Below are positions 12,701 to 41,256 of a stretch of 64,000 bases of DNA, piece after piece. The stretch comes from Octopus vulgaris (Eukaryota), in assembly GCA_951406725.2 (NCBI GenBank), contig OX597821.1, forward strand, positions 11,656,001-11,720,000, written 5' to 3'. A model generated the notes under the pieces. The model was not told the DNA's origin. It ran no database searches and saw nothing but the letters and a program-made list of their open reading frames with translations. Positions within the stretch are counted from its first letter, which is position 1. Every line of letters begins with the position of its first letter. Made by a program: the position numbers and the translations under genes.

Positions 12701-12740
12701 AAGAAATTACCGGTTTCGCGTGTAGCTTTTCAAATTTCTT
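12701..12740 (-). ncRNA. Minimal hammerhead variant (U3-A8 core), left arm
   Basis: Reverse complement aagaaat-TTGAAAA-gc(tacac)gc-GAAA-ccgg-TA-atttctt. Helix I is 7 bp and helix III is palindromic. Confidence 0.65.
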
Positions 12741-12924
12741 GTGACGTTATGTTTATATTGCATGGAGTTATCGTTGTTTTTATTTCCAGGAGATTTCTGA
12801 ATAAGGGGAGGTAGTGAGTTATTTATTCCGGTGTAAGGGAGATAATCGCTTAAAATTTTTTTTTTTTTTTTTTCCCTTTTCCTTGTTTGGGAAAATTTCT
12901 CTGTGTCAGTATGTTCGGATGGTT

Positions 12925-13484
12925 ATATACTTCATAAAAACCCAAAATTAAAGGAAATTCTAAACATACACCAAATCATTAAAAGCTACAAACAGCCTAA
13001 ATCACTTAAAAAGATTCTCACAAAGGCAAAATTGTCTTCTAAAATTACGGATGCAAAAGTAAAAAAATGTGGTAGATCGAACTGTGCAACATGTCCTAAC
13101 CTATTGGAAGGATCAGAATTCTTCTTTAAAGAGGGACAGAAATTTAAGATCAAATCTAACTTTACTTGTGCCTCTGAAAACATAATTTATGTTATTAAAA
13201 GCTCGGGCTGCCACCAAGACTACGTGGGTTCCACGGGACTATCACTCAGGCGTAGATGCACACTGCATCGACAACAGATTGCATTCCCAGAATATAGAAT
13301 GATACCTTTTAGTGAGCATATTGAGAAATGCGCAAAGCAACTACTGCCACAATTTTTAATCTTCCCATTTTACCAATGTGCTTTCGGATCATCAACACAA
13401 ATGAGACTGAACAAGGAAACATTCTTCATTGAAAAGTACAAACCCAGACTCAACCATCCGAACATACTGACACAGAGAAATTAA
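12925..13484 (+). CDS. PLE GIY-YIG endonuclease domain (truncated ORF, no RT)
   Basis: KCGRSNCATC Zn-linker, NIIYVIKSSGCHQDYVGST..LRRRCTLHR, RLNKETFFIEKYKPRLN. Open frame. Confidence 0.88.
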
Positions 13485-13623
13485 CAAGGAAAAGGGGAAA
13501 AAAAAATTTTTTAAGCGATTATCTCCCTTACACCGGAATAAATCACTCACTACCTCCCCTTATTCAGAAATCTCCTGGAAATAAAAACAACGATAACTCC
13601 ATGCAATATAAACATAACGTCAC

Positions 13624-13663
13624 AAGAAATTTGAAAAGCTACACGCGAAACCGGTAATCTCTT
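13624..13663 (+). ncRNA. Minimal hammerhead variant (U3-A8 core), right arm
   Basis: aagaaat-TTGAAAA-gc(tacac)gc-GAAA-ccgg-TA-atctctt. Confidence 0.6.
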
Positions 13664-13796
13664 TAAAAATTTTAAAATTATGTCATTTTAAGGAAAGGAA
13701 AAAAAATTTTTCCAATATTCTCCAGACATTTTGACACAAATATATATATTTTTTAACATTTAAGCCTTCTGTCGTTTTTTCACACTTTACTATTTT

Positions 13797-13870
<74 letters not shown>

Positions 13871-14479
13871 TGTATATATGCATACATACATATACATACA
13901 TATATATGTAGAGTTAATCCAAACATGAAAACACAACGCGAGGACGCGGAACAAATATAGCATTATTGGACGCTCAGGAAAGAAGGAAAGAAGGAAGGTT
14001 TAACGTTTATGTATATATATATATATATATATCTTGACCTAACTGGCTAACTCGCGAAACAATTCCAAGCACATTTTGGCCAGCCGGTATAGCAACAGCT
14101 CACAGTCTGGTCCATTCTCTGATGTGCTCACCTACATACGAACATACATCTCTCTCTTTCTCTCTCTCTCTCGAACCAAGAAAGAAAGGTCAGACTTGGT
14201 TGAACATCGGTCACGTGGGGAGAGAAGAGAGAGATGTAGAGGCAGAGGGATAGAAGAATTAAGGAGGGGCAAGAAGAAAAGGTAAGGGCCAGAGAGAAGT
14301 GAAAGAGGAAGAAAAGTGAGCATGAAGAGAAAGCCAGGAAATGTGAGAGAGGGGGAACGAAAGAACGAAGAGTGGAATGAACGAAGTGTGAAAGGGCTGA
14401 TAGAAAGAAGGAAAGAATGAAATAATAGAAAGAATAATAGAGTCGTACAAAATTTAGATTTATATATATACTTACATAT

Positions 14480-14922
14480 AAGAGACCAAAGTGCATGTAC
14501 GCCACGATATTTTTATATATAAAAAATAAAAATATGGGACCAGAACCCAAAACATCCAGACTTCTAGGTGATACAAAAAATGAGACAAAACAAACAGACG
14601 TACGATACAAAGAAAACAAGGACGGGTCATTCGGTGTCTTCTTTCCTCTGTCGATTTCCAGATTATCTTTGCAATTTCTGCTGGTTATACTCGAGATTAC
14701 TCCAATCTCGTCAGCGCTAAGGAAAACTAAGCTAAGAGCATTAGATTCCTTGGAAGAAAGCAGCGAATGTATATGAAAACAAGGACGAAAAAAAACGGGG
14801 AAATGTCACACAAATACAAATGCAAATAACAGGACATAACAATAGGTGTCTTTCGACTATGGACGAATTAAATTAAGCTGGCGTGTGTGGAAGTAAAGCC
14901 TTACGGCAGGGACATAAGATTT

Positions 14923-14925
<3 letters not shown>
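14480..14925. repeat. Unclassified interspersed repeat in (TA)n
   Basis: Segment ~14537-14680 recurs inverted at 60843-60988. Confidence 0.6.
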
Positions 14926-14953
<28 letters not shown>

Positions 14954-15473
14954 TTTTTTTTACTTGTTTCAGACTATGCAGAATTTTATTGAAACGAATC
15001 GATCCCAGTCTTATGATTTTCTAAAGCCTTGAACTTATTTTATCGGTATCTTTTGCCTAACCGTTAAGTTACGGGGACGTAAACACACCAACAACGGTTC
15101 TCAAGCGGGTGCTATATGATAATCAAAACCACAAAAATACGCAGACATCCAAACATACACTCATAAACGACCAGCTTCTACGATAAGATATTAGCCCAAA
15201 GTGGGAAGCAAACACCTTACTATACATACTCACAGACATACATACATATATATGAATATGTGTGTGTGTGCGTGTGTGTATGTGTGTGTGTGTGTGTGTA
15301 TGTATGTGTGTGTGTGTGTGTGTGTGTAGGATTACTATATATGCCGTTGTGCGTTCAAAAATACATGCATACATATTTACGAACATACATTTGATGAATA
15401 GATAGATGGATGGATAGATAGACAGGCAGACAGACATACAGACAGACAAACATATAGATAGATAGATAGATAA

Positions 15474-16675
15474 GTTTCTTTATTGGCCACACAGGGCTGC
15501 ACACAGATGGGACAAGTTACAAGGTAGAGCTTTTCTTTTGGGGGATGAAAAAAACAAAAAACAAAAGAAACAAAAAAGGGGTGGCGTAGGTTTTCGATCA
15601 AGAGGGATCGTAAAAGGGAAGAAAAGAACAAAAAAGATATTAAAAAAAAATAAAAATATAAAAAATAAAAATAAAAATAAGAAGAGGAAAAGGGACAAAA
15701 GAAAGGAGAAATGAAAAAAGAAGAAAAAGGGGAAAAAAGGGGAAGAGGAAAAAAAAAAACGATCAATAGGGATCGTGTATCACAGTGTTATGATATATGG
15801 TGTAAAGGGGAAAGCAAGTAAGGTTTATCCGTGGGAAGAAAAGCCTACGAAAAAGACCACAGTAACCTTGGTCAATATTGTTTTATGTTACCACATTTGT
15901 TTGCAAGTGGGTAACCCTCTGTTTTCAATTTCTGGGTTCATAGGATTATGCTCAAGGTGGCTTCGTCATTCATACGTGCCATTCTTGCTACATTCACCCA
16001 TCTTTTTTTAAAACATTCGCTAGACAAAACTTGCCTCTCTACTCTCACTTTCCTTTTCAAGTGGTACTTGAAGACGTTGATGAGAGATTGACCAGAGAGG
16101 AAAGTGTTTGTCTCCAATCCTTTCAGACGCGTCCACCAGATACATTCTTTCGCCATAGCCACAAGGATGATGAAAATAGCTCTTCCTTCCCGTTTGAAGG
16201 AAGGAGGCGTGACAATATTAGCGATAGACTCAGCTGATAAACCGACTCGTCCCACACGTGACAGCAGTTGTTCGACATAAGCCCACAGGTCGGAAATTGT
16301 TGGACACTGCACGAGTGCGTGCAGAACGGTTTCGTCGCTCTGACCACATCTCGGGCAGGTCGGCCCCGTGTTTCTCGAGCCGTGTCTGTAGAGCTTATCC
16401 CGAACGGGTTGCGCTTCTCGGTAGCACTGCCAGGTCAGGGATCTCTGGAAGTTGTCCATGGGCCCTGGTCCGAAAGTCGTCCTGAACAGGCGGGTCAGGT
16501 ACTCCTCGTCAACATCCAGGTTCGCCCCGAGCTCGTCGTCGTACCTCTCCTCCACTAATCCCCTATAGAATGCTTTGGTTGTGTTGAAGTCACTCAAGGT
16601 CGACCCAGGACGGCGGAGTTGCTTGAGAGCAACACGACACTCGCGGTGCCATTCGCCCTTCCTCGGCCTCTTTTT

Positions 16676-16676
<1 letters not shown>
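15474..16676 (-). mobile_element. 5'-truncated Tx1/L1-like LINE inserted in (GATA)n
   Basis: ORF2 C-terminus with zf-RVT (TCPRCGQSDETVLHALVQC), stop at 15938, ~460-bp 3' UTR ending near AATAAA. (GATA)n on both sides. Confidence 0.88.
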
Positions 16677-16740
<64 letters not shown>

Positions 16741-17349
16741 AAGTCAATAAATCATTCGGCAAGCCATCCAAGCACCTACAATAAATACCAGTAAAGTAAT
16801 AAGTTTGAGTTACTCAGTTATTACTCCTTCATCTCCCCTTCCACTTCCTGCCTCTTTCATCCACAACTCCTTCTTTCCTCTGTACATGAAGGGGAAGTGG
16901 GATCAAATATTGCCGGTGTATATAGAAACAGAGGCATATATCATTCTAGGCAAAGTGATACATCACACACAGCCACTCCCTAAAAGTCTCAAATAGGTGG
17001 CAAGCAGCCTAAGTGACTGAATTATTTCAAAATAGCGTTGGAAACAATGGAGCTATTAGCGACAAACAATCAACAGTGACAGCAGCAACGCCAATGGCAG
17101 CAGCACTAACGCTCACACCGGTGTTTCGATGTCATCGCCCCCACTCCTGTCACTCTTGATCCATATTTACATTATCGTTCACTGTCAGTAATACTATCAT
17201 AGTCATAAACAACATAACCAGGCAATAGAGAAGAGGGAATGGTGATGTAGTTGAATTTGGTTTTCGCTGATTAGTGCAAGGTTCTTCATCTTTTACACTT
17301 CTGTACATTACTGACACTGACATACGAACGCGCGCAAGCACGCATACAT

Positions 17350-17663
17350 GTATTCTGATGTGGCTGCGTGGTAAGATGCTTGCTGCTCAACCACATGGTT
17401 ACGACTTCAGTCTCGCTACCTGGTACCTTGGGCAATTGTCTTCTACTATAGCCCTGGCCCGACGAAATAACGTGAGCGGAATTGAGAGACAGAAACTAGA
17501 AGATATATATATATCTTCTAGTATATATATATATATATATCTTCTAGATATATATATATATCTAGTATATATATATATATCTTCTAGATATATATATATC
17601 TTCTTGTATATATATATATATATATATACATACATACATACAATACATACATACATACATACA

Positions 17664-17699
<36 letters not shown>

Positions 17700-18110
17700 T
17701 ATATACATATATACAACGGGCTTCTTTCAGTTTCCGTCTACCAATTCCACTCACAAGGCTTTGGTCGGCCCGAGTCTATAGTAGAAGACATTTGCCCAAG
17801 GTGCCACGCAGTGGGACAGAACCCGGAACCATGTGGTTGGTATATATATATATATATATATACATATTGGTGTATGTGTGTGTGTGTGTGTGTTTCGGTG
17901 TGTCTGTCTCTATCTTTATTCCCCACCACTGGTTGACAACCGGTATTACTTTTATTTCGTTCACGTCCTCATAAATAGCGGTTCGACAAAAGGAGACCAA
18001 AAGAATAATTAACAAGATTTAAAAAGAGTACTGGGGCCAATTTGTTTGACAAAAATCTTCAAGGCAGTTCCCCAATACGTCTACAGTTCAATAAATGAAA
18101 CAATTAAAAG
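17350..18110 (+). mobile_element. SINE family A copy with a nested inverted SINE A head (17711-17841)
   Basis: Order is head (+), microsatellite, head fragment (-), microsatellite, tail (+). Confidence 0.7.
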
Positions 18111-18990
18111 GACATGTGTGTGTGTGTGTGTGTGTATCTTACGTCATTATAATGTCATCAAACTTCAAAATTCCCATATATATTGTCACTAGAATTACCT
18201 CCCTCTTGTCACAATGTCAACTATGGCGCCATCTTCAGCCACGGTGTCATTATTGAACTTTGAAAGGGATTCATTAAACGGTCGATCTACCCGCAGGAAG
18301 TAGCAATCAAATTTTACACAAATTACATCATACAGTTTCTGGAAATAGAAGGAATGTCGTTCTACCTATACAATATTCGAGAGATGGACGTCGTGGTCAT
18401 GGTTAGCATCCCTTTGATCAAAGATCTGCTCAGTCTGGCCCCACCAAGGGTTCAAAAATGACAACGATAACCAGGCATTTCTTCCCCCTCCCCTTCCCCT
18501 CTTCATGCTCCTCCTCCTCCTCCTCATCATCATCATCATCATTACCGTCGTAATCGTCGTAATCGTTATTATTATCATTATTAATCAACGTCATCATTAT
18601 GCTCATTATCATCATTAACATTAATATGTTTGTTGTCATTGTCATGGTTGTCGTCAACACATCGTCATCGTCATCATCATCATCATCAGCATGATCATAA
18701 TGATGATCATGATGATCACCGTAATCACTACCACCACAACCTCCACCGCCATCTTTAACACACTGCTGCAACCAGCACCATAGTTACAACCAATCATCAG
18801 AACACTTCTCACATTCATGACATACTCCATTACTATTAAACACATCCAAGTCTCCATAGCAACATTAGTAACAGCAACAGCAGCAGCAGCAGTAGCAGCA
18901 GCAGAAACAGCAACGTCAACAACAACCACAAAAGCAGCATCAACAATAACTACAATGTCAGCAACAATCACTCCACGAATGACATTAGTA

Positions 18991-19560
18991 TTGGGTTGTC
19001 CGGAAAGTTCGTGCCGATTTTTAAAGGCAAGAAAAAGGTCAATAAATACTTGCCAATACATTTTTAATCAACCAAATATGAACCATTTTGCTGCAAAATG
19101 CGTCTCCATCTTTCCTTTACCTTGAAAATACTCTCTTCCCAGAATTGAGGTGGCTTCTGGCAAAGAATTCATCAAGGTATCTTTTTAATGTCATCCAAGG
19201 AAGGAATTGAAATTTTTACCATTAAGACTATTCTGCAGAGACCTGAATAAGTGGAAATCCGAAGGAGCAATATCTGGTGAATTTAGAAGGTGAGGTAACA
19301 CATCCCAGCCGAGCTGCAGCAATTTTTGTCTGGTTCCCAAAGCTTCAAGTGCCAAAGATAAACTTTCTTATCTTCCATTTTAAAGGGTAACAGAATTAAC
19401 ACAGGTTATAGGAACATAAACCTTCTTCCATGAAAATATAGCTTAAACTGTGCTCTAAATGGAGGTGTAGTCAAATCCTATTTTATGGACTCAACCATGT
19501 TCTAAAATAAGTCGAAAGGTAAGCAACTATAAATCGGCACGAACTTTCTGGACAACCCAA
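18991..19560 (-). mobile_element. Internally deleted mariner element with both TIRs
   Basis: 30-bp TIR ttgggttgtccggaaagttcgtgccgattt / aaatcggcacgaactttctggacaacccaa with TA TSD. Remnant WDVLPHLLNSPDIAPSDFHLFRSLQNSLNGKNF. Confidence 0.92.
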
Positions 19561-19772
19561 TAGTAACAATGAACAAATCAATATAAAAAACAACAACAAT
19601 AGCAGCTACAACAAATATAACTTCACCAGAAGCAAGAGTGGCAATATACGCGCTATGTAGAACACTAACAACAATTACTACATCCATATCAACAACGACT
19701 GCAATAACAACAACAGCAACACAACAATTACAGCATTAACAATATGTTATATATATAATTTGCTTCTACAAG

Positions 19773-20940
19773 ACGGAGAACTGGCAGAATCGTTTCCACG
19801 CTGAGCAAAAGGCTTTTCGGTATTTCGTCTGCCGCAACGTTCTGAGTTGAAATTCCTCCGAGGTCGACTTTGCCTTTCATCCTTTCGGGGTCGATTAAAT
19901 AAGTACCAGTTACGCCCTGGGTTCGATATAATCCACTTAATCCGTGTGTCTGTCCTTGTTTGTCCTCTCTGTGTTTAGCCCCTTGTGGGTAGTAAAGAAA
20001 TAGGTATTTCTTCTGCCGTTACGTTCTGAGTTCAAATTCCGTCGAGGTCGACTTTGCTTTTCATCTTTTTGAGGTCGATTAACTAAGTACTAGTTACGCA
20101 CTGGGGTCAATGTAATCGACTTAATCCGTTTGTCTGTCCTTGCTTGTCTTCTCTGTGTTTAGCCCCTTGTAGGTAGTAAAGAAATAGGTATTTCACTTGT
20201 CTTTAACGTTCTGAGTTCAAATTCCGTCTAAGTCGACTTTGCCTTTCATTCTTTCGGGGACGATAAATTATGTACCAGTTGCGTACTATGATCGATCTAA
20301 TCAACTGGCCCCCTCCCCCTAAATTTCGGGCCTTGTGCCCGCCTAGAGTAGAGAAGAATCGTTTGTACGCCGGACAAAATGCTTAGCAGTGTTTCGTCCG
20401 TTTCTACATTCTGAGTTCAAATGCCACCGAGGTCAACTTGGATTTACTTTCTTTCGGAAGGGATAAAATATGAACCTGCTGAGTTGGGGGTCAACGTAAT
20501 CGACATTTCCGCTCACCAGAATTTTCAGACCGTGTACCTAAATTTGAAACCGCTATAATTTTCTACTGCAGGTACAAGGACAAAAATTTTGGGGGACGAG
20601 CTAGTTGATTACATCGATTCCAGTACTTAAATATTACTTACTTTACCAACACCGAAAAATCGAAAATGCCACCGAGCATTTTGCCCAGCGTGCTAAAAAT
20701 TCTGCTAGCTTGCTGCCTTAGCATATAATATAATTTCAAATTTTAGCTCAAGGCCAGCAATTTCGGGGGAGGAGTAAGTCAATTTGATCGACATTAGTGC
20801 TCAGCTGCTATTTATTTTATCGACCATGATGAAAAGCAAATTCAACTTCGGCGGAATTTCAACTCAGAACGATAAGACATGAAATATTGTTAACCATTTT
20901 ACTCAGCACGGCATCTGTTCTGTTTGCTCGTCGTCTTTTT
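19773..20940. mobile_element. Cluster/tandem array of SINE family B (Meta/MESC-like core)
   Basis: Four + units of gttctgagttcaaattcc..gaggtcgactttgcctttcatcctttcggggtcgat..aagtaccag at ~180-bp period, then two degenerate - copies. Confidence 0.85.
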
Positions 20941-20944
20941 AGCA

Positions 20945-21160
20945 TACTCTCTTTTACTCTTTTACTTGTTTCAGTCATTTGACTGCGGCCATGCTGGAGC
21001 ATCGCCTTTAGTCGAGCAAATCGACCCCGGGACTTATTCTTTTTGTAAGCCCAGTACTTATTCTATCGGTCTCTTTTGCCGAACCGCTAAGTGACGGGGA
21101 CGTAAACACACCAGCATCGGTTGTCAAGCAATGCTAGGGGGACAAACACAAACATACACG

Positions 21161-21210
<50 letters not shown>

Positions 21211-21374
21211 TACGACAGGCTTCTTTCAGTTTCCGTCTACCAAATCCACTCACAAGGCTTTGGTCGGCCCGAGGCTATAGTAGAAGACACTTGCCCAAGG
21301 TGCTACGCAGTGGGACTGAACCCAGAACCATGCGGTTGGTAAACAAGCTACTTACCACACAGCCACTCCTGCAC
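20945..21374 (-). mobile_element. SINE family A, full length
   Basis: Reverse complement of 5631-6030. Confidence 0.9.
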
Positions 21375-22561
21375 TATGTAAAATTTGAAAAACAACAACA
21401 CCGACAGTACAATCAATTGTAGTAACAATAATAATAACAACTTCAATATTAGATCACTTGACTTGCAAGAAATGACTGCTAAATCTATATCAAATCACAT
21501 CCAAATCTTTAGACGAAATGAAGAGAAAATGCAAATATGAATGGAGTTATTTTGGATATTCAAAAATTGACAGAAACGACCAGACGATTATGAATGTTTG
21601 ATGATGGGTCGTTTCGATCAAAGATGGGCAGGGGTTAAACACCAACAAAATATCAATAAGAGCAATGAAAGCAACAACTGTGTTTGTAGAGGCAACAATA
21701 AATTTATGTACACAATATAAAATTTACCACCACCAACACCACCACCACTAACAACAACAACAACAACAACAAAAACAACAATAACAGCAACAGCAGCAGC
21801 AGCAGCAACAACAAAAAACAACAATAACAGCAACAGCAGCAGCAGCAGCAGCAACAACAACAAATATAACAACAGAAATTGAAACTAGAGAAGAAACAGA
21901 TGCTAAAGCCTATGAAGGAGTATCTTCGTACTCTTTTAATATGCTAGAAATGGTAGCCAAGTCTTCCACATATCAAACCATTGAACCATCGTTAGAAAAA
22001 GGGCAATGCATATTGGATAATGTGTCGAAGATACACTAAGTGAAAAGAAGAGGAAAGACGATATGGTCTCGGTTGGATTACGATCGATCTGCCTTATGGA
22101 TAAACAACAAAAGGAACAACAATTGTCGTAGCAACGGCAGCAGCAGCAGCAGCAGCAGCAGCAGCGTCAGAAGCAGCATTCGCAAAAGTGACAATAGTAC
22201 AAACCAAAAATTGTGGCTTTCGTTTCTAGTTAATGTCTGCTATGGTAACAGTAATCCATCGATCACTTTTAAAAGTGCACAAGTGGGGGATTGGTGGGAA
22301 GTCATGATGCCGGAAGAGAGAGAGGGAGGAGATAGAGATACAGAAAGAGTACAAGAGAGAGACAAAGAGTGATAGAGACGGAGAGATGTGAGAGAAGCAG
22401 GACGAGATATGAAAGAGAAAGGGTGAGAAAAGAATAAGAGGAACGGTGATAGTGACAAAGAGTGACAGAAATATAAGAACAGGTAGATGAAAGAATGAAG
22501 AAAGCAAAAGAAAAACCTGGAAGGACGTGACTAACAAATAAGAATGGGGAAAGTGTTATGC

Positions 22562-22601
<40 letters not shown>

Positions 22602-22705
22602 AATAATAAGGGTCAAACATTGAATATTAATTTGACTAGTATCAATTTAAAACCAGTTGCCTAGCATATTAAAATCTGGTAGTACAGCAAAGTATATTAC
22701 ATACA

Positions 22706-22916
22706 TATAAGAAGGATGACCACTACGTGGACAACCTTTTGCTAGAGGTAGATCAGCTATGGTATTACCACTAAGAAAGGAATGTTCCCAAGAAAATTTA
22801 GCAAACGTTATGGCTTTTGCTAAATTTTCTTGACAACATTCCTTTCTTAGTGGTATGACCATAGCAGATCTACTTCTAGCATAAGGATTGTCCACGTAGT
22901 GGTCATCCGACTTATA
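22706..22916. repeat. ~210-bp near-perfect palindrome (fold-back)
   Basis: ggatgaccactacgtggacaa...aatttagcaaa, ~10-nt loop, tttgctaaatt...ttgtccacgtagtggtcatcc. Confidence 0.9.
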
Positions 22917-22981
22917 TATATGAATGTACGCATGTATGTATGTATGTATGTATATTTATCTATATATATCTATATATCTAT

Positions 22982-23340
22982 ATAATGTAAAGTATAAAAG
23001 CCATCTCAATATGGCTAACCACAAGGGGGGGATGTTACTGTAGCTTTTTAGCCCCAGGAGATCATCGTCTCCAGCTGGCTTTAGACACACTTTCTGTGCC
23101 CTTATGGTATTTGCAAAGGGAGACCATCCCTTTCTCGTAAGCCTGAGTGGTACGCACCTGACCGGTTTCGAGATTATTGTCTCTAATCAACGGGCGGAGC
23201 CAGCTGGAGACAATGATCTCCTTGGGCTAAAAAGCTACAGTATCACCTCCCCTTTGTGGTTAGCCATATTGAGATGGCTTTTATACTTTACATTATCGAG
23301 CGATTACTGTTTACATCTCGTTCTGAGATTTAATAATGCT
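22982..23340. repeat. Fold-back element with 99-bp inverted arms and an HHR-like spacer
   Basis: 22982-23080 is the reverse complement of 23198-23296. The spacer minus strand reads TTGATTA-gaga(caataa)tctc-GAAA-ccgg-TC. Confidence 0.85.
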
Positions 23341-23353
23341 ATCTATATATCTA

Positions 23354-23432
<79 letters not shown>

Positions 23433-23533
23433 ATATGTATATACGTAATTGTCGAACGATGAAAATGAGTGTTCAACACCACATTGGTGGATATTATTTC
23501 TTTATTTTGTGAAAACCAATGGTAGCCTTAATT

Positions 23534-23582
<49 letters not shown>

Positions 23583-24226
23583 GATCGAAGAAATAGGGAA
23601 AACAATATAGAGGGCAAATTAGAGGCAAAACAGGATTAAGATTTTGTCGATAACTCATTGAACAACAGCAGTGACAACAATCATAATTAATTCATTCGTA
23701 TAATCAGCTTTTAGGAAATTCGAGTAAACAACAAGAAAAACCCAACGATCAGTCTTAAATGGTGATTGTTCATGATAATAAAAAGCAGCCAAATCTTCAA
23801 ATCACATTCTACCATCTTAGAAAATGATATAAAATAGAGGAGTGGATGGAGTAATCGTCTTTATTTTCACGCCCACTTTCATAGATTGAATGGACTCTTA
23901 CTAACACAAAGTTAAATAATTTATTTCATCATCATCTTTCTTTATCTCATTTTTTTTTTGTTGATATCTTTGCATATCTTTCCTTACCTGCTGTCATCTA
24001 AACGCATTAGATGTCACAATTAAAGCAACCTGTCTCTTGCATATCACATGTGATCCTTCTTATAGCTAGTTTCTTTATTATCTAAGCTAATCGGTATCAC
24101 ACCGCATATGATTGTTAATATTACACATATCGATATAAGTGATGCATGCTTGCTTAATTTCTCACCCAACTTTGCATGTCATCTGCATTCGGTGCTAACG
24201 TTTCATCGAGCAGAGAAAATGCATTC

Positions 24227-24300
<74 letters not shown>

Positions 24301-24301
24301 A

Positions 24302-24350
<49 letters not shown>

Positions 24351-24354
<4 letters not shown>

Positions 24355-24842: not shown

Positions 24843-24959
24843 AAAAAAATTATTCAAGAAGACTATATATTACTCAAACGACATAGTGTATATTTAAACA
24901 CTTCACTCTCTATTTCATATCTTATCTAGAATAACTATTGATCAACCATTTTCTCACAC

Positions 24960-25009
24960 GGTCTCCGGTGAAGGGATATATAAAATATCCCGGAAACAGC
25001 TGTAAGACC
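24960..25009 (+). ncRNA. Hammerhead-like motif with variant core (CCGGUGA)
   Basis: ggtct-CCGGTGA-a-gggatat(ataaa)atatccc-g-GAAA-cagctg-TA-agacc. Helices are perfect, with two core substitutions. Confidence 0.65.
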
Positions 25010-28888: not shown

Positions 28889-29615
28889 TTTTTTTTTCTG
28901 GTAACACTGCATCAGTCCAGTGCAATGGACGTTTAAACAGATTGAATAAAACTTTTGAATTCAAAAAGCCTTTGATTTTCTTCCTTTCAAATAACGTCGG
29001 CATAAATATATTTTAGATTAATTGGCAAGAAAGGACCCTAACTCAATTGGTAGAGTTTGTTTGGCGGCTATTTCTAAAGAATAAAAGAAACGAACGACTT
29101 AAACGTTAGTAGAACGAAGGTTTTAAGCAAAGAGAGACAACTTCAAATCAGAACAGTATCATACTTACGATGAGATTAGAACTTATGCTAACCGTTCGAC
29201 TGTTACAAGTTAAAACGATGCTAGAAATTTACTGAGTATTGACACTCTGCATGAATGGTCTTCAATATCTTCGGTATCAAATCATTTTACACTTGAATTT
29301 ATTTTCTGAATGACTCCAGGTTTTTCAAAGGCTTTTCTCTACAACTAATTTAGAACTCGGCCATTCTCGTAGATACTACTTGTGCTGAGATGATGAATCT
29401 ATGCTCGGCAATTAGGAGATAGTTGCTCTACGCGGTCTCTCAACTTGCAGTACACATGACAGCCAAATCATTTTAAAACCAAATCCCTTTATATTTACTA
29501 AAAAAAATTCAAAAACAGAAAAAGAAACGAAATAAAGCACACTCTCAATACACTGTGTAAAAAAGAAGACAAAAGAGCACAAACTTCCACCATGGCAACC
29601 CCAACGTCCCAATGT

Positions 29616-31134
29616 TTTATTACCCGCCAGGGGCGAACAAAGAGGGAATAATACGTAACATGTTGGGACACACAACAAGAAAAATATAGGACAAACGTAT
29701 GAAAAAAATGAATGAAGAAGTGAAAAAAATGATAGAAATGGAATGAAGCTACTCGGCCTCACCCCCGAGCAGCCTCGTTTATACCTCTCCTCTTTTAAAC
29801 CCAGTTTCTTAAAAAATGTCTGTTTTATAATTTTTCAAAATATCCGTGTAATCAATAATTAATGGCATCTCATCTCTGTCCAAGTTTACTTCTCAAAACC
29901 CATACCCATAATCAAATCTTTCTAATATTTCTGCTTGTTCTTTGGTTAATATCACACAACTGTGCTACCCCTTCACATTATCACGTCCCTCTGTCTCAAC
30001 GCTTTTTACGTCTTTCCATGAAGCTATCTCCTGGTTTAAGTCTTCATTTATGTTATAAATCATACTCATAAAACTTTTTTCTCTTTAGCTGGAGGAGAGG
30101 AAGTTTGGGGCCTTGTGTGCATGTGTCTTTCTTTTTGTTTTTGCCGGAGGGGAATGGGTAGACTTGGTGTCTGTGGGGGAGGGGGGCTGAGTGGACGTGA
30201 GTGGGGTAGGTTTGGGCTTGGGTTTTAAGCCCGTATCACTTGCCTTTTTTTTCCTTTTCTTCTGTTTCCTCCACTCACCGTCTTCCACGTTTCCTCCCTT
30301 TTCTCCATTTTTTCCTCTTTCCTCCACCGGTTCTTCTATTTCCTTCTCTTGTTCTTCCGTTGTCTTTTTGGTCGGTGAAGGGCAGTCCACTCTAATGTGG
30401 CCTTGTAGACCACATTTGTAACATCGAGGGATTCTGCTCTCCATTACCACCTCGTCCATCGTAATGATCTCCGTCATCCCTTCCAACGTTACCGCCTACC
30501 CTTAAATTATCCTTTCCAGTGCTTGCTCCTTTCACATTTCGCATTATGTTCTAGTGGCCTGGAACACTGTTTTATCGTCCTCATTTTCCATGAGGACCGC
30601 GGCTGCTATCTAGGCTAAGTCTAACTGTAGCGGTATTCCTTCTACTCTTACCCTGTTGCACGTCGTCCAAGGTACGTGGGTAGAAGTACTATTTCTTCGT
30701 TTTTGACGCTTTCTCCTGCTTGCCTTTTTGTTGTTGCCTTGGCTTTCATCCTCACTTTCACCGTACCAAATTTGTTTCCTCTTGCTAGGTATGTAATTTC
30801 ATGACAAATTGGCCTAAGCGCTTTCTCAATTTGGCTTGCAGTCATAATGTCTATTTTTCCTGCTTTAACCGAATAAGTCTTGAACGTAATGGTTCATTCC
30901 CTTGTGTCACTCAGCGTTTCCTACGGGTGGTGGGGCCAAGCCCACATTATACCCGTCCCTACTTAGCAATCCTTTAAAACTTTCAATTTCCTTCATATCA
31001 ATTTCATTTTCTTGGCGTTTTGCCACATCCGCAAATTTTCTTTCCTTTTCAATGTTGCTGTCTATCTTCCCAATAGTTCTCAACAATTCATCTTCAGAAG
31101 ATGACAACTCAATAAAGCTGACGGTCCGAATAGA

Positions 31135-31165
<31 letters not shown>

Positions 31166-31492
31166 CTTCTTCTTCTTCTTCTTCTTCTTCTTCTTCTTCT
31201 TCTTCTTCACTTTCTTCTTCTTCTTCTTCTTCTTTATTTCATTTGTTCTTTCCATTTTCTTCCCTTCACTTTTCTTTTCATCTTGTTGTTGTTGTTGTTG
31301 TTCTTCTTCTTCTTCTTCTTCTTCTTCTTCTTCTTCTTCTTCTTCTCCATTAGGCCAACTCTCCTCATATGAGGAGGGAAACCACAAATACACTGGAGCT
31401 AAGACAATTAACAAATTTGCTTAAAAAACACTGACAAAAAAATTAAACACTGTCAAAATAACGTACTTACAATACGCACTTACAACGACGTC
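29616..31492 (-). mobile_element. ORF1/Gag-like-only (HAL1-like) degenerate retroelement
   Basis: Fragmented minus-strand ORF with LLPTYLGRRAT and CCHC knuckle RCYKCGLQGHIRVDCP, then a Lys/Glu/Pro-rich region and a Tx1-type 3' tail with AATAAA. No RT motif. Confidence 0.65.
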
Positions 31493-31499
31493 TTAATCA

Positions 31500-31830
31500 T
31501 TTTATTATCCACCAAGGGGCAAACATAGAGGGGACAATACATTACAAGTGGGGACAGAAAACAGGAAAAAGGATAGGACAACATATGAGAAACATGAAGT
31601 GACAAATGAAATGAAAAAATGTATTGAAGCTTCTTCATTTATACCTTTAACGCCTTTTGTACCCTGTTCCCTCCAAAACAACTATTCCATACTCTTCCAA
31701 CAGCTTCTCATAAGTCACCCACTCTGGCTGTGTATTCCTATCTAGTTACGCTTCCCACATGCTATATCCACTTTTATATTTTAATAATTTCTTTCTTGGT
31801 GTTCGTTTGAAGACTAACATAAACTGTTTT
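31500..31830 (-). mobile_element. 3' fragment of a related element
   Basis: tttattatccaccaaggggcaaacatagaggggacaatacattac...ataggacaacatatgagaaa parallels 29616-29750. Confidence 0.6.
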
Positions 31831-31845
31831 TGCTGCTTTGTGGCA

Positions 31846-32002
31846 ATCGATCCCAAAATGTAATCAGTTCCGCCGGTGACGAGGCCAAACATCCATGAAA
31901 GTTTCATCTTAGTCCATCCAGCGTTCTTGAGATATCGTGTTCACGGACAAACAAACACGACTGAAAGCAATACGTCGGCCTTTGCTGAGGTGGAGGTTAA
32001 TA
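31846..32002 (+). mobile_element. Helitron/Helentron-like non-autonomous end fragment
   Basis: aaagtttcat...atccagcgttcttgagatatcgtgttcacggacaaacaaac followed by a degenerate terminal hairpin. Confidence 0.45.
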
Positions 32003-33148
32003 AGCACGTTTGCAATGTCTTTCATTGTATGTATGTTTGATTGTATGTCTGATTGACTTGTGGTTCAACAACTACACCAGGGACATAAGCAATCACAACC
32101 ACCGTTAATAAATTAGGTTTTATATGGTCAGTTGCCCTATTAGAGATAGTAGTTAAATGACCCCTAATCATAGAATGGACTTCTTGAAAGGAGCAGCTTG
32201 GTTATACTGATTCCAAATCAACCTGGAGTTAAACAGTAGCAATACAAACAACAATAAGAAAACAACAACTAGAGCAATAACAACAAACGCAGGAATAATA
32301 AATGATTGAACAGAAACCGCCGGGGGAGATTTTAACAAATGGATTCAGGCTTGATTTTTAAGGATTTGTCCATTTATTTATTTATTTATTTATACATTAT
32401 TTATTTATTTGCTCCTTTCTTCACATATTTATTCCCATCACCTAAGTTACTTTAGAAGCATTTGACTCAACATACTGTGTAATCTCTCGGTGGATTAGCG
32501 GCAATGAAATACGATTCGACATTCAGAGAACGACATGCACGGCTTAAAAATCGATCTCATCATCTATTCGTAGCGACAAGCCGGAGCTATGTACAAAAAG
32601 TATGATCCCGTAAGTCAAGGGACTGTGTGTTCGTAAGTTCTTACGAACACACAGTATACAACACAGTATTCACAGAATACAACTGGATACACGTAGGCAC
32701 GCGCACACACACATACACATACACACACATACACATACACACACATATGTGAGTACGTATGAATGTATACATTCATGGATGAAGATGGCAATGAAATAAA
32801 CTTTTCAGAGTATAAGAAGATATTTTATCCCACAAAAGAATTAGCAATGAACCGAAGGAATATGAGAAAAGCTAAAATAATTATGTGATAAATAAAATGA
32901 AATATGGTAAAATATAATAAAATACAGCAAAATTAAAATATTCAGTAGTTACACAAATTCAGTTTTCACATATCAAATATAGATGGCGGAAATCGAATCA
33001 TCACTCGATATAGAAACATCGTTATATATAGACACTCGTATGTATGTATGTATGTATGTATGTATGTATGTATGTATGTATGTATGTATGAATACATACA
33101 TACGTATAGAAACGTACGTGTGTACATACATACATACGTACATACATA

Positions 33149-33562
33149 AAGAAATACTGGTGGAATGTACCAGTGAAGACCTCAATAAAATGTAAGCAAA
33201 ACAGACCGTGCTGCCCAGCAGATCTTACATAGAGCTGAAGATCGGTGAAAAAGAGAATACCATTGCTGAACTATAGAGAAATCTGCAGATAATCTGGATA
33301 GATCCAGATTACAAGTTCAGGTTTATACCTGTAATTATTGGGGCCCTGTGATATGTAACACACTGCCTAAATACTAATCTTGAAAAATTAGGCTTCTCAA
33401 AACCAGAAAGGAGAAAGCTAATTCGAAGACTACAGATTCAATTCATCACTGGAACTGTAAAAATCTGTGAAACTTCCCAGAAGTTTATCATTTATATATA
33501 TATGAGCATATCTAGATATGTAACTATATGCTTGAGAATACATAAAACATACAAATCTGCAC
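33149..33562 (+). mobile_element. Second RLE-clade non-LTR 3' fragment, inserted in (CATA)n
   Basis: Manual translation IELKIGEKENTIAEL*RNLQ...YKFRFIPVIIGAL*YVTHCLNTNLEKLGF...RRLQIQFITGTVKIC, with stop codons. Confidence 0.75.
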
Positions 33563-33755
33563 ATACATACATACATACATACATACATGCATACATACAT
33601 GCATACATATGTGTGTGTGTGTATGTGTGTATGTATGTGTGTATGTGTGTAGATACTCTATACGTTTGTAGAGGATAGATTATTATTCATAAACACCAAT
33701 ATTATTGATAATAACAATTTCAACAATATTCTCGTTTAAAAAGTATATACACACA

Positions 33756-33834
<79 letters not shown>

Positions 33835-34653
33835 GCATACATATACACATACACACGCAACTACCACTCTAGATATAAATACACTGAAGTAAGAACGAAC
33901 GGCGAAGAGGCAAAATTCCACAAAGACTTCTGGAACGAATATCATTTCCAAACGGTCTGTGTGGCGATTCCATGTTCAATGAGTCATATCAAGTATCGGA
34001 GAGAATAGGAACCGAAAACAGAAACATTAGTAACATCTAGGAAGAAACATTGAAAACCTCCTCGACATTGACAAAACACAGAGAATTCGAGATATATGTA
34101 TTTCAGTGTATGTATTGCATTTCATTGTATGTATGTATTTATGATTTTATGTATGTATGTATGTATGTATGTATGTATGTATGTACGTATGTATGTATGT
34201 ACGTATGTATGTACGTATGTATGTATGTTTGTATGTATGTATGTATGTATGTATGTATGTATGTATGTATGTATGTATGCGTGTGTGTGTGTGTTTGTAT
34301 GTGTGTGTGTGTGTGTGTGCGCATGAGTTTATATCAGTGGATGTATCTTTAAACGTGTATTGCATTGATTCTGCTTCGTATGAGGTTTTATATTATTGAT
34401 GTGATGTCGAAATTAATGCCTATGTGAATGTGTGTGTATATGTGTGTACGTGTGTGTGTGTATGCGTGTGTATTCGATGTGCTTTAAGTGCTTTTCATGT
34501 AGTCATTGCAATGTATTTATGTGTATACATACGTGTATATGCGTGTTCGTATGAGCGATAGATTGTTGTATGGCGTTGCAAGTAAACACACATATATACA
34601 CACGCACAGCGAGTAAACACACATATGTATACACACACACACACGTACACACG

Positions 34654-34685
<32 letters not shown>

Positions 34686-35263
34686 CACTCACACACATCC
34701 ACACATCCACATAAACACACGCATTACTATGCACATACGTGCAAACTAATGCAAGCACACACGCAGAGATACATTTACAAGTATGTATAAATATAAACAA
34801 TGGCGTTCAGCGTTGGTTCAATGTTTATGGGAATTTGTCGAGAACGTATGTGTGTGTATTTGTGTTGTGGGCGCACTTATATATATATATATACATACAT
34901 TATATGTATGCGTAAGCGCGTGTGTGTGTGTGTGTATACATGTATGTGTGTGTCTGTGTTTTGTGTTTGTGTATGCATTTTATCTAAGAGTGGTATTTTT
35001 GTATCGCCAAACAAACCAAATCGTAAAAGTTCTTCAAAACCGAAATGAAACAAAAGAAAGACAAAGAAGGGGAATTCATTCCAAAAACAAAAGAGAATGG
35101 TGATTGGTCCTTTTAGAATGTTAAAAGGTTCCGATATAAATTTATGGTTTCTCTATTATTCCGTTCTTTGTTGATGTGGCTGGTCTACTCCTTCTGTTAA
35201 ATATATAGTAGAATCACAGGCACACACATGCATGAACATATAAAATTTATATATTTATATATG

Positions 35264-35294
<31 letters not shown>

Positions 35295-35316
35295 GTATAT
35301 ATATATATATACATGC

Positions 35317-35373
<57 letters not shown>

Positions 35374-35375
35374 CG

Positions 35376-35417
<42 letters not shown>

Positions 35418-35610
35418 AGTACGTATGTACATATATTTAGTATATATATATTGTATTTATGTTTGTGTGTGTATATATGTATATATACGTATATATATAT
35501 ATTTATATATATCTATATATATATATTATATATGAATGTATATGTATATGCATGTATATTTGTATTTATCAGTCTATCTTCCTATGTATGTATGTGTGTG
35601 TTTGTGTTTG

Positions 35611-35643
<33 letters not shown>

Positions 35644-35999
35644 TCATATTGATATGGAGTAGGCTATGTACGAATAGCTTGACATGTATAAAGTTCACAC
35701 CATCACTATGCGCGCATATACTCGCACAACTATACGTTATCACTTAGTAGAGGTACACAAACAGACAAACGCAGTCAAGCTCACACACAAACTACCAAAT
35801 TGAATAAACTGCAGATACACACATGGCCATGTACAAGCACACAGATTTGTACACACATGGATAATACTCACATGTAGCTACGCATGTACACAGGAATACA
35901 TACAAAATACATGGATGCATAGTAATATCTAGATGGAAACGCTTTAAATAGAAAGGCATAGAAAATAAATATAAGACTACCAACCCATTTATCTATCTT

Positions 36000-36074
<75 letters not shown>

Positions 36075-36196
36075 GTCTATCTATCTGTCTATTTTCATTA
36101 CTCACTTTCTGCGTGTATGTATGTATGTATGTATGTATGTATGTATGTATGTATGTATGTATGTATGTATGTATGTATATATATATATACATACAT

Positions 36197-36228
<32 letters not shown>

Positions 36229-36340
36229 GTAGGTAGATAGATAGGTAGATAAATATGTAGAGAGACAGATTGATTGAGAAATAGTTAGGTAGATATAAAT
36301 ATATGTATACACATATACATATATGTATATATATATATAT

Positions 36341-36381
<41 letters not shown>

Positions 36382-37979
36382 ATAAATGCACTCACACACA
36401 CACATACACATATATGTCATATATATGAGTGTGTGTATGTGTGAGTGTATATATATACATACACACACTCACATATGCACACATAAATACATAGACACAT
36501 ATTTATTCGCAGATACTTAGAATATGTGATATAGGCTCTAGAAACACTCTCAGAGAACCGTAAACGCTCGACATACGCAAAGGAGCGCACAGATACACTC
36601 ATAGAAGAAACCGCATACACAATATTTTCACGAGTACTCGCACTTACATATATATGCATAAGAGTACACACATAGAGTGTTTATACATAGCCATGCATAT
36701 ACGCATTGATTAATACAGAGAAATACAAACATACGTATCGACTCATACATATATGCAAATGGCCGCATGCAAATCTTGGTAGATACCCAAAAAAATCTTA
36801 CGCATATATACAAATTCAAATGTACTCATACAATATACTATGTGCATAAAATACAAACATACACACTTAATTATGGACACATAAACATAGAAACGTCTGT
36901 GCACATAAAATTTACACATATGAACGAAAGCGCACATAACGTACTTAGTGCACATGCACGCATAGAATGAGTAACCAACATGCATTCATAACAGTTATAC
37001 GCAGATCTATGCATAGATATACATACAGAGGTAATAAAGTATACATGCGCATATCTGGAGAGCTGAGAAACGGGCGGTGAAACACATTTATCAAGATAGT
37101 TCTCTTTATTTATCCATTGCCGAATGATTCACTTCCGGTGTTTTTGGACAATGGAAGTAGGCTCTAGTCAAAGCTTAGGAATCGTAGTTGTGCAAACGTA
37201 ACAGTAGGTGAGTTATTGGGCTGGTGGTTGGAGAACGGGTATTCGAGCTGCTGAAATCTATGGTGTTAAATCAAAATAAGTCAATGGAGTAAGCTCTCTG
37301 ATGTTCGCAAAATGTGTAGAAAGAAGCGTCTGGCGCCAGAAATAAACATATAAATAAATAAATATTATAAGAAGAATAATGAAACAAACATCTGACGGAA
37401 AATTATAAATAATGTAATATAGTGGAATCAGAGCCACATATAATATACTTATCCGCTAATGTAGGGGATATATTTGTAGACAATATAAATAATATATTAC
37501 TGGTGCGTTAACATTGCTTTGTTAAGCGTGGCTGACCCTCACTGTTTCTTTCCTTCTCATTTGCTTCTTTCTTTACTCTCTCCCCTCTCTATCTGTCTGC
37601 TCCCCTCTCTCTCTCACTTGGCCCACGAAAATATTGCATAGAAGTATAAGTTATTTACATCTTTCTATAGATACATAGGGTTCTCTATAAATCTATAGTT
37701 CTAGTTTTATAATATAGATGGCATTAAATCAAAACATTGTTAAAGTACTACGAATACATTAATCAAACTAATTCTGAAGAATGCGTCATATATGCAAATC
37801 GGGCTATCGGGTTACTAAGCACTCTGTTGTCGAGGCTTCACCAGCAATGTTTCTGTGGACAGTAAAAGAGTATGCTCAGTTGTTGATCACATCCAAAAAT
37901 TGGACTGAAATGAGTTTGACTAATTCTTCTTTTACTGTTGAAGAAATTATATACGACACAAAGGTCAGATGTTCACACC

Positions 37980-38063
<84 letters not shown>

Positions 38064-38329
38064 TTATCTATCTTTCTATCTATTCATCTGTATCGATGTA
38101 TATTTACATAGTTATATATATATATATGTTCACAAACGTGTACATATGTATATACATATACATACTTTTATATATATGTGTGTATATATATATATATGTA
38201 TATACGTATATATATATTCATGCATATACATATATATATACACATATACATATATATATATATACACACACGCACAAAACATACATATATACATATGTGT
38301 GTGTGTGTGTGTAATTGTATATAGTTGAA

Positions 38330-38520
38330 ATTTACAGATAAGCGAAAGACGAAGACAGGAGTATGAACAACAAGCAGGTGTATTTGTTTCACTCTAGGGA
38401 AAGTGGGAAGGTATTTTACGTATCGAGTCTACGATCTTCAACTGAAAGAAATACGAGAAAATAAACAGAGATGCTAAGAGAATTTGCAGATTTAGCGGTC
38501 AAGCATGATGACTAGTTGGG
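38330..38520 (-). repeat. Short PLE-terminal-like repeat family C (degenerate copy)
   Basis: aaagacgaagacagg...caggtgtatt, also at ~13909-14010, 40950-41035, 59468-59640 and 60990-61131. Confidence 0.7.
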
Positions 38521-39014
38521 AAAACAAAGTTTTGACAGAAGAGGAGCTAATATATATTTATATCAGTCTATTATGTATAATAACGGTTAAAACTTAAGAA
38601 TATGTTCTGTAGTACAATGCATGACGAAGCGTAGATATGCCTGTAAGATTAATAATCAGGTCTGTTTATAATTCGAACTCTAAGTTGATTAATAATACGT
38701 TAAAAGGAATATAGTAAGATGAAAAACAGTGCGGAAGTCCACTCTCTTTCTGTGTGCAGGTATGTGTGTGTGTGTGTGTATGTGTAGTGCGTGAATGAAA
38801 AATATAATTTCACACAGAAAAAATTGAGTCACTTCAAAGTATCGAGTTACCGGTCTTCGCCAGACTGTTTGAAGTATACAAGCAAACCGAAACTTGGTAG
38901 TCACAGTGAAAATTTTCCTTGCGAAAATTTAATAAGCGTGCACCCTATTAAAAAGAGCTAAGGAATTCTGTTTAATATTAAATTATTCTCATTTAATCTT
39001 AAAAAAGAGGCATT

Positions 39015-39075
<61 letters not shown>

Positions 39076-39203
39076 CTTATAAAATAAGGGCAAAAGAAAA
39101 ATTCTGATGCCAAATATGCCGAAAAAAGACAAAACTGTCAATAACCATTATAATTTATGCGTCCCGAAACAAGCTGATAGAAATTTCTAAAAAAATTCCG
39201 TTA

Positions 39204-39264
39204 TTACCGTATTGGTCCCAATTTCGGTGTTAATTCATAAGAAGTTTTCCCTCCTCAGCGATAA
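39204..39264 (-). ncRNA. Type I hammerhead ribozyme
   Basis: Reverse complement ttatcg-CTGAGGA-gg...cc-GAAA-ttgg(ga)ccaa-TA-cggtaa. Confidence 0.75.
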
Positions 39265-40006
39265 ATACGTAAGACATAAATGTGATACTTACTCATACCC
39301 ATTGAAAAAGCAAGCACTAAGTCCTGAGTGGACCTAAGAACCCTAAATATATCCAAAATAGAAAATCTTCAGCACATCTCGAGGCACGTGCGATTCGAAC
39401 TAGAAACTTTCACAGAGTGAGAGAATCCGAAACTGAACACAATTAAATTTACAACTAATGTAAGATATAATTTTTTTCGGAGAAAAATTTTATCAATGGC
39501 CAGCATATCAAAAAATACCTTTAAAGGTTAAATTTATAAATAACTTATAAAATAATGGCAAAATAAAAATTCTAATGCCAAATATGCCGAAAATAATACG
39601 GTAATAACGGAATTTTTTAGAAATTTCTATCGGCTTGTTTCGAGACGCATAAATTATAAGGGTTATTGACAATTTTGTCTTTTTTCGGCATATTTGGCAT
39701 TAGAATTTTTATTTTGCCATTGTTTTACAAGTTATTTATAAATTTAAATAAGGTATTTTTTGATATGCTGGCCATTGATAAAAATGTTTTTCGAAAAAAA
39801 TGTTATCCTACATTAGTTGTAAATTTAATAGTATTCACTTCCGGATTCTCTCACTCTGTGAAATTTTCTAGTTCGAATCACACGTGTCTCGAGATGTGCT
39901 GAAGATTTTCTATTTTGTATATATGTAGGGTACTTAGGTCTACTCAGGACTTAGTGCTTGCTTTTTCAATGGGTATGAGTAAGTATCACATTTATATCTT
40001 ACGTAT

Positions 40007-40067
40007 TTATCGCTGAGGAGGGGAAAATTCTTATGAGTTAATCCCGAAATTGGGACCAATACGGTAA
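40007..40067 (+). ncRNA. Type I hammerhead ribozyme
   Basis: ttatcg-CTGAGGA-g-ggga-a-aattc(ttat)gagtt-aa-tccc-GAAA-ttgg(ga)ccaa-TA-cggtaa. AUA triplet, cleavage predicted after 40061. Confidence 0.85.
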
Positions 40068-40284
40068 TAACGGAATGTTTTTAGAAATTTCTATCGGCTT
40101 GTTTCGGGACGCATAAATTATAAAGGTTATTGACAATTTTGTCTATTTTCGTCATATTTGGCATTAGAATTTTTCTTTTGTCCTTAATTTATAAGTTATT
40201 TATAAATGTAACCTTTAAAGGTATTTTTTGATATGCTGACCATTGATAAAATATTTTTTCGAAAACTTTTTATCCTACATTTGT

Positions 40285-40329
<45 letters not shown>

Positions 40330-40331
<2 letters not shown>

Positions 40332-40526
40332 AATCACTTGACTGTGGGCATGCTGGAGTACCGCATTTAGTCAAGCAAATCGACACCAGGACTTATTTTT
40401 TGCAAGCTTAGTACTTATTCTTTCGGTATTTTTTGCCTAATCGCTAGGTTACGGGGATGTAAACACACCAGCATCGGCTCTCAAGCGATTTTAGGCGGAC
40501 AAATACAAACATACACACACACACAC

Positions 40527-40586
<60 letters not shown>

Positions 40587-40606
40587 GTGATCAATAACTG
40601 AGCATA

Positions 40607-40661
<55 letters not shown>

Positions 40662-40838
40662 TATACATACATATGTATGACGGGCTTCTATCAGTTACCG
40701 CCTTCAAAATCCACTCACAAGGTTTTGGTCGGCCCGAGGCTATAGTAGAATTCACTTGCTCAAGGTACCATGCAGTGGGTCTGAACCAGGAAGCAACTGG
40801 TTGGTAAGCAAGCTACTTACCTCACGGCCACTCCTGCG
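40330..40838 (-). mobile_element. SINE family A
   Basis: Similar to other copies, with an expanded internal microsatellite. Confidence 0.85.
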
Positions 40839-41085
40839 TCTATCTATCTATCTATCTATCTATACACCCACACACATACATACACACACAAACGCACATA
40901 TATATGTATATGTGTGTGTATGTATATATACATATATATATATAGTGGGAATTTACTAAAAGCAAAAGACGAAGACTGGTGTGTAAACAAGAAACAGATG
41001 TATTAGTTTAACCCTCGGGAAGTGAGAAAGTCTTAAGTACTCACACACACGCACACACACTCACATGCACACATACGCACACACA

Positions 41086-41134
<49 letters not shown>

Positions 41135-41220
41135 GCACACACGCACGCACACACGCATATATATATATCGGAAAAAGTCGAGGTAGAAAATGCTAAAGTA
41201 ATTTTATAAAAAACACATTT

Positions 41221-41256
41221 CAGTACCGGTTTCGGTCATTGAGACCTTTTCAACTG
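41221..41256 (-). ncRNA. Minimal hammerhead variant (U3-A8 core) in a short TA-flanked fragment
   Basis: Reverse complement cag-TTGAAAA-ggtc(tcaat)gacc-GAAA-ccgg-TA-ctg. Confidence 0.7.

Follow-up and report, generated by a model that had tools for sequence, protein, structure and literature searches.

A hammerhead core with a U3-A8 pair at three sites

Does a hammerhead ribozyme core in which U3-A8 stands in place of the C3-G8 pair recur in unrelated elements of one genome, and what would such a core do? The question is raised by a 64,000-nucleotide stretch of Octopus vulgaris DNA (assembly GCA_951406725.2, contig OX597821.1, positions 11,656,001 to 11,720,000; hereafter the window), in which an earlier note had pointed to motifs with the core UUGAAAA in both arms of a Penelope-like element (PLE) and in one further fragment. 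We found that all three motifs are minimal type I hammerheads with a U3-A8 core. In the reading that we consider probable, they lie in PLE pseudo-long terminal repeats (pLTRs) and are weak ribozymes, dependent on dimerisation and probably assisted by protein, which inert copies have inherited from active parents.

The pattern TTGAAAA-N(7-30)-GAAACCGGTA matches the window exactly three times, at 12708-12733 (-), 13631-13656 (+) and 41224-41253 (-); in 100 dinucleotide shuffles this frame occurred 0.00 times on average and 0 times at most. Each site can be read as a type I hammerhead (U3 U4 G5 A6 A7 A8 A9, G10.1-C11.1, G12 A13 A14, A15.1-CCGG-U16.1, A17). The type I core (N3-U-G-A-N-N8-A...G-A-A-A...U-H, with a Watson-Crick 3-8 pair) is present in 3/3 sites as UUGAAAA...GAAA...UA with U3-A8.

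The two motifs of the PLE form family A. Its left-arm hammerhead (12701..12740, -) has a 7-bp helix I (AAGAAAU/AUUUCUU), U3 at 12733, a 2-bp helix II (GC/GC, loop UACAC), GAAA, the palindrome ACCGGU and A17 at 12708; cleavage is predicted between 12708 and 12707. The right copy (13624..13663, +) has U3 at 13631, A8 at 13636 and A17 at 13656, and fails a strict structural descriptor through an A.C mismatch in helix I, caused by C13659. As other copies show T at this position at about 100% of depth in 4/4 runs, C13659 is a private mutation. Family B (41221..41256, -) has a 3-bp helix I (CAG/CUG), U3 at 41253, a 4-bp helix II (GGUC/GACC, loop UCAAU), ACCGGU and A17 at 41224. The helices thus differ between the families and pair in both, as the earlier note had described, and both families retain U4, G5, A6, A9, G10.1-C11.1, G12, A13, A14 and A15.1-U16.1.

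The strict descriptor identified four motifs in the window, two with U3-A8 and two with C3-G8, and none with a mixed core. Against the two U3-A8 matches, 300 block shuffles gave a mean of 0.013 per window. Viral contigs scanned with the pattern (at least 120 loci) served as an outside background only. None of the 106 distinct sequence-only frame matches in this background had both helices, four had helix I and 11 had helix II; U3-A8 was the commonest core among these chance matches (40/106). Helices I and II, with G10.1-C11.1, measure 7+2 bp at 12701 and 3+4 bp at 41221. With the core in all three sites and the motifs far above chance, their identification as hammerheads with a Watson-Crick 3-8 pair holds.

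Standard models do overlook them, as had been predicted. No Rfam hammerhead model matched family A, and HH9 scored 12.5 bits on family B against a cut-off of 52, short of the gathering threshold. Sub-threshold scores are expected for minimal variant cores. Across the whole window, the best 150 of 545 Rfam matches listed were all sub-threshold and mostly microsatellite artefacts. Repeat finder output likewise consisted mostly of microsatellites, apart from two inverted pairs.

The elements that carry the motifs

Family A resides in a 5'-truncated PLE (12925..13799, +) made up of the end of an open reading frame (ORF) and a 3' non-coding part, the pLTR, which holds the hammerhead 147 nt past the stop codon. 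The ORF (12927..13484, +) is the C-terminal part of a reverse transcriptase-endonuclease (RT-EN) ORF, with a CX4CXXC zinc-finger linker (CGRSNCATC) and a GIY-YIG endonuclease. Its relatives have the RT upstream: the ORF aligns at 74% identity with residues 479-654 of P0009, and the RVT_1 domain of P0009 spans residues 174-326, so the order in the element is RT and then endonuclease. The Pfam match to GIY-YIG (E-value of 0.01) is below the cut-off, and seven of eight aligned relatives match the domain. Compared with P0008, 2/185 residues differ, one of them a conserved cysteine.

An inverted, further 5'-truncated copy forms the left arm (12559..12924, -) and corresponds to 13452-13805 (366 nt, 95% identity with gaps). 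A roughly 28-nt extension is found at the left end only (12531..12558, -) and fits the one-sided 30-40 bp tail of PLEs (PMC8557442). The insertion is bounded by (TA)n microsatellites at 12444..12530 and 13800..13868. Neptune-type PLEs are described as 5'-truncated, with an inverted copy alongside, a tail on one side, a zinc-finger linker and microsatellites as targets (PMC8557442). Our element resembles the endonuclease-bearing Neptune clade in the order of RT, CX2-5CXXC linker and GIY-YIG endonuclease, its pLTR hammerhead and its 5' truncation, and also in the inverted copy at its 5' end, the one-sided tail and the microsatellite target. Unlike in full Neptune elements, the RT domain is missing from this copy. 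The anatomy suggests a Neptune-type PLE but does not distinguish Neptune from Nematis.

Family A is abundant. At least half of the sampled words were present in 20 of 24 listed runs (12 studies, six organism labels), even in runs of 5-6 million letters. In a metagenome scan, two of 83 candidate stretches were distant elements, L001 and L002, and scans of viruses (0/69) and prokaryotes (0/59) contained no relative.

The two family A hammerheads point apart on opposite strands, and the arms cannot dimerise in cis. RNA transcribed across the locus is predicted to fold into a single long hairpin, in which the motif is buried. As both hammerheads belong to one insertion, they count as one observation; the recurrence of U3-A8 at three sites, with all three motifs real, therefore amounts to two independent observations.

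Two further features lie close to family A. The words CAUAA upstream (13612-13617) and UUAUG downstream (13678-13682, +) could lengthen helix I, and both recur in loose ends of diverged contigs with differing inner flanks. About 230 nt from the element's left end is a U6 snRNA-like sequence (12180-12296, -; 43.6 bits against a cut-off of 44, E-value of 1.3e-07).

Family B is held by a 137-nt island between microsatellites (41169..41305, -), which has no ORF and no second copy within the window. We interpret this island as a putative truncated pLTR. Directly before the family B core, a pyrimidine-rich stretch with UACUAACAG (41254-41275, -) resembles a 3' splice site, and helix I takes its 5' strand from the CAG there. 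In Drosophila virilis, the intron of Penelope likewise ends at helix I (PMC4209133).

Variation among family A copies

Four runs compared with 12930-13790 revealed 111 variable places, and our statements rest on 40 of these. No alternative letter was listed at U3, A8 or A17, which shows that within these 40 places neither C3 nor G8 occurs as a major allele. Among 24 of 521 loose ends, diverged contigs begin matching at 13624-13625 (2, 2 and 1) and stop matching just behind 13655 (11 in X1, 8 in X3). These positions are the edges of the motif, and loose ends occur elsewhere too. The loose ends behind 13655 continue with C and then UUUCU, that is, with C17 and a retained helix I strand; positions 3 and 8 cannot be read in them.

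Predicted folds of monomers and dimers

The palindrome had been taken by the earlier note to suggest dimeric cleavage. In our predictions, helix III (ACCGGU) forms only between two copies: its pair probability is 0.0 for monomers and rises to 0.74-1.0 for homodimers. For the open double hammerhead, the predicted energy is -15.3 (A) and -21.3 (B) kcal/mol, and for the monomeric active fold it is +2.5 (A) and -0.5 (B) kcal/mol. These calculations support dimer dependence of both motifs only as a matter of thermodynamics.

The same predictions revealed a competing pair that the earlier note had overlooked. Although A17 fits the NUH rule as written, U3 is predicted to pair with it, lengthening helix I over the cleavage site, with a probability of 0.54-0.81 in the two intact motifs. 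A related case is known from G17 hammerheads, where N3-N17 can likewise pair, stack on helix I and cover the cleavage site (Kalweit and Hammann 2013, PMC3884650). There, a C3-G17 trap was offered as an explanation of the NUH rule, with costs of 300-fold or more for minimal hammerheads and of 8-100-fold for tertiary-stabilised ones. Our case differs in that the pair is U3-A17, is a prediction, and occurs in a natural dimeric minimal ribozyme. Candidate tertiary partners or pseudoknots of loop II reached 3-4 bp matches at best, none of them convincing.

The core among published hammerheads

The U3-A8 variant cannot be called new. The core, UUGAAAA itself, the palindromic helix III, the proposal of dimeric action and the failure of standard searches to see such cores have all been published (PMC4209133; PMC3088659). 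Cervera and De la Peña (2014; PMC4209133) described about 1,300 U3-A8 minimal hammerheads in Cercyon PLEs of Schistosoma mansoni, and also palindromic helix III, dimeric action, low dimer activity and opposite-strand pairs from truncated elements. The 56 rows of their Figure S3 include two with U3-A8, one of which is exactly UUGAAAA (S. mansoni(4)), and one with U3.G8. Position 17 of these three U3 rows, as read from machine-extracted columns, is G, U and U, and never A.

Our motifs share with S. mansoni Cercyon the type I fold, the pLTR location, the U3-A8 core, the palindromic helix III and G10.1-C11.1, and in both cases most hammerheads stand alone or form pairs on opposite strands that derive from truncated elements. 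Unlike Cercyon, families A and B lack the extra base between A9 and G10.1 that belongs to the PLE minimal consensus of PMC4209133; it is also lacking in the M. japonicus and S. kowalevskii(2) rows there and is thus not universal. Further differences are the 6-nt ACCGGU in place of ACGU, a much shorter helix II (2-4 bp), A17 in place of U17 or G17, and the Neptune-type host.

Perreault et al. (2011; PMC3088659) reported several natural examples of C3-G8 to U3-A8 covariation and state that covarying pairs were proven active in vitro, which agrees with the earlier note's view of the change as compensatory. A 2-bp helix II and a weak helix III are described there as common, but their account of U3-A8 deals neither with this element family nor with an A17 context. 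We found no discussion of the combination U3-A8-A17 in the literature searched; as Lunse 2017 and Przybilski and Hammann 2007 lay outside that search, this negative is a weak one.

One origin or two

The two families had been described as unrelated. Alignment scores of their flanks indeed stay within the range of shuffles (p = 0.96 for the upstream part, 0.27 for the downstream part and 0.14 overall; control comparisons with families C and D gave p = 0.26-0.37). However, A and B agree at positions that a hammerhead leaves free, namely A7, the CCGG insert and A17, whereas the C3-G8 motifs of the window have other palindromes (AUUGGGACCAAU and ACAUAUGU). Because of these shared free positions and differing palindromes, a shared origin of the core, followed by replacement of the helices, would be no less likely than two double changes that arose independently.

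In L001, a distant relative (41% identity), a degenerate hammerhead-like motif of the C3-G8 type lies at 2838-2880, about 300 nt past the RT-EN ORF, with the palindrome ACAUGU. It fails the strict descriptor, and L002 has no recognisable hammerhead. Since L001 has a C3-G8 motif, the core must have changed state somewhere in this PLE group; one locus does not give the direction of that change.

Weak ribozymes, relics or a lock

In the reading that we favour, weak dimeric hammerheads inherited from active parents, tandem transcripts of the parent elements would bring two copies together through ACCGGU to form a double hammerhead. This would cut after A17, weakly and probably aided by the element's protein, to process a precursor RNA. 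The U3-A8 pair would have been established in the parents, perhaps a single time in an ancestor shared by A and B and perhaps via a U3.G8 wobble, and the 3-8 pair would have been under selection there; the copies in the window would be inert remnants. The abundance of the motifs over chance supports this reading, as does an endonuclease with a CX4CXXC linker that lies C-terminal to the RT in close relatives. Further support comes from the inverted arm, one-sided tail and microsatellite target, which match PLE anatomy (PMC8557442), and by analogy from a lizard PLE hammerhead that needs the element's protein for cleavage and relies on the 3-8 pair (PMC11167929). Even dimeric PLE hammerheads have low activity (PMC4209133; PMC6765202).

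Several points weigh on the other side. Closing the cleavage site through U3-A17 is predicted to be favoured over the open form by 1.4 and 2.2 kcal/mol per dimer. A variant-free gap of 26 nt is expected by chance in 29-34% of cases, so that conservation of the core, judged from 40 of 111 places, is not significant. The helix I of family B is just 3 bp long, and its island lacks both an ORF and a second copy within the window. When double mutants of a type III hammerhead were surveyed pair by pair, swapping the bases to G3-C8 was the one change that restored activity, and the other double mutants all remained low (PMC9901934); set against PMC3088659, the literature evidence on U3-A8 activity is mixed. 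Finally, cleavage of all three motifs is a prediction from their sequences. The argument that the double change preserves pairing and hence reflects selection stands in part: U3 and A8 do form a pair, but pairing is not activity (PMC9901934), and U3-A17 is predicted to compete with it. Selection on the pair is what we infer.

These points could also be taken to mean that the motifs are dead or near-dead relics, which we think unlikely. U3-A8-A17 would then trap the cleavage site, the motif would be kept by descent or as a folded protein-binding site, and the elements would move without needing cleavage; both core changes are transitions from C:G to T:A, and the genome is AT-rich. The probability of the U3-A17 pair where helix I is intact (0.54-0.81) is in line with this, as are the losses of rate caused by the analogous C3-G17 (300-fold in minimal, 8-100-fold in tertiary-stabilised hammerheads; PMC3884650), the weak loop II matches (3-4 bp at best) and the GC content of the window (27-43%). 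Moreover, catalytic mutants left insertion of the lizard PLE in vitro unaffected (PMC11167929), and Naiad elements thrive without canonical hammerheads (PMC8557442). Against relics stand the retention of every catalytic-core base in two families whose flanks no longer align and the joint occurrence of both 3-8 changes. A U-A pair would also trap less strongly than C-G, and the loose ends point to related copies with C after U16.1, which would escape the trap.

Alternatively, U3-A17 might be a selected lock that holds the ribozyme closed in free RNA until dimerisation through the GC-rich palindrome and binding of the RT-EN protein release it, and that times cleavage to one step of the cycle. 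Impaired cores have been suggested as on/off switches (PMC3884650), the lizard PLE hammerhead is protein-assisted (PMC11167929), and U3 occurs together with A17 in both families, while the three U3 rows of Figure S3 (PMC4209133; machine-extracted columns) have U17, U17 and G17 and none A17. Yet A and B may have one origin and so form a single observation, related copies have C17, and secondary-structure energies disregard the tertiary fold; we give this proposal little credence. It is very improbable that the 41221 motif is a chance match, leaving one real family: its 3-bp helix I, its solitary island without an ORF and the frequency of U3-A8 among sequence-only chance matches (40/106) are outweighed by core letters 17/17 identical to family A, a 4-bp helix II that includes G10.1-C11.1, the absence of frame matches from the sets of 100 and 300 shuffles, 0/106 background matches with both helices, and flanking microsatellites as in family A.

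Other elements in the window

Hammerheads of the C3-G8 type occur elsewhere in the window. A third family at 39061-40290 (C3 at 40013, +, and 39258, -) has a canonical CUGAGGA core, a 6-bp helix I, a long helix II and a near-palindromic 12-nt helix III with central G.A pairs. Its carrier is a non-coding element with a roughly 463-nt partial tandem and an inverted copy, which looks like a PLE-derived non-autonomous or retrozyme-like repeat. At 57300-59300 (-) lies a second, decayed PLE with RT-like and GIY-YIG-like frames recognised by eye and no Pfam match; its C3-G8 hammerhead has C3 at 57410, a 53-nt helix II region, the palindrome ACAUAUGU and C17.

A hammerhead-like C3-G8 motif with a true hairpin helix III and U17 (11180-11235, +; C3 at 11190) has a weak helix I and may be due to chance. 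It is located at a direct-repeat junction (repeat length roughly 357 nt), beside a sequence that resembles a mariner remnant. Other retroelement remnants include an RT end with a PHD-like finger (51773-52774, +), a zf-RVT domain (15938-16813, -) and a zinc knuckle (30085-30495, -).

Significance for PLE hammerheads

The main gain is an added host lineage for a known variant, with the consequence that annotation by CUGANGA or Rfam undercounts such ribozymes. With an abundant young U3-A8-A17 family, related C17 copies and C3-G8 families, this one genome offers a natural series for the co-evolution of the 3-8 pair and the cleavage base. If the lock were real, a self-locking hammerhead in a Neptune-type lineage would be a natural shift of the NUH rule that serves as a timing switch.

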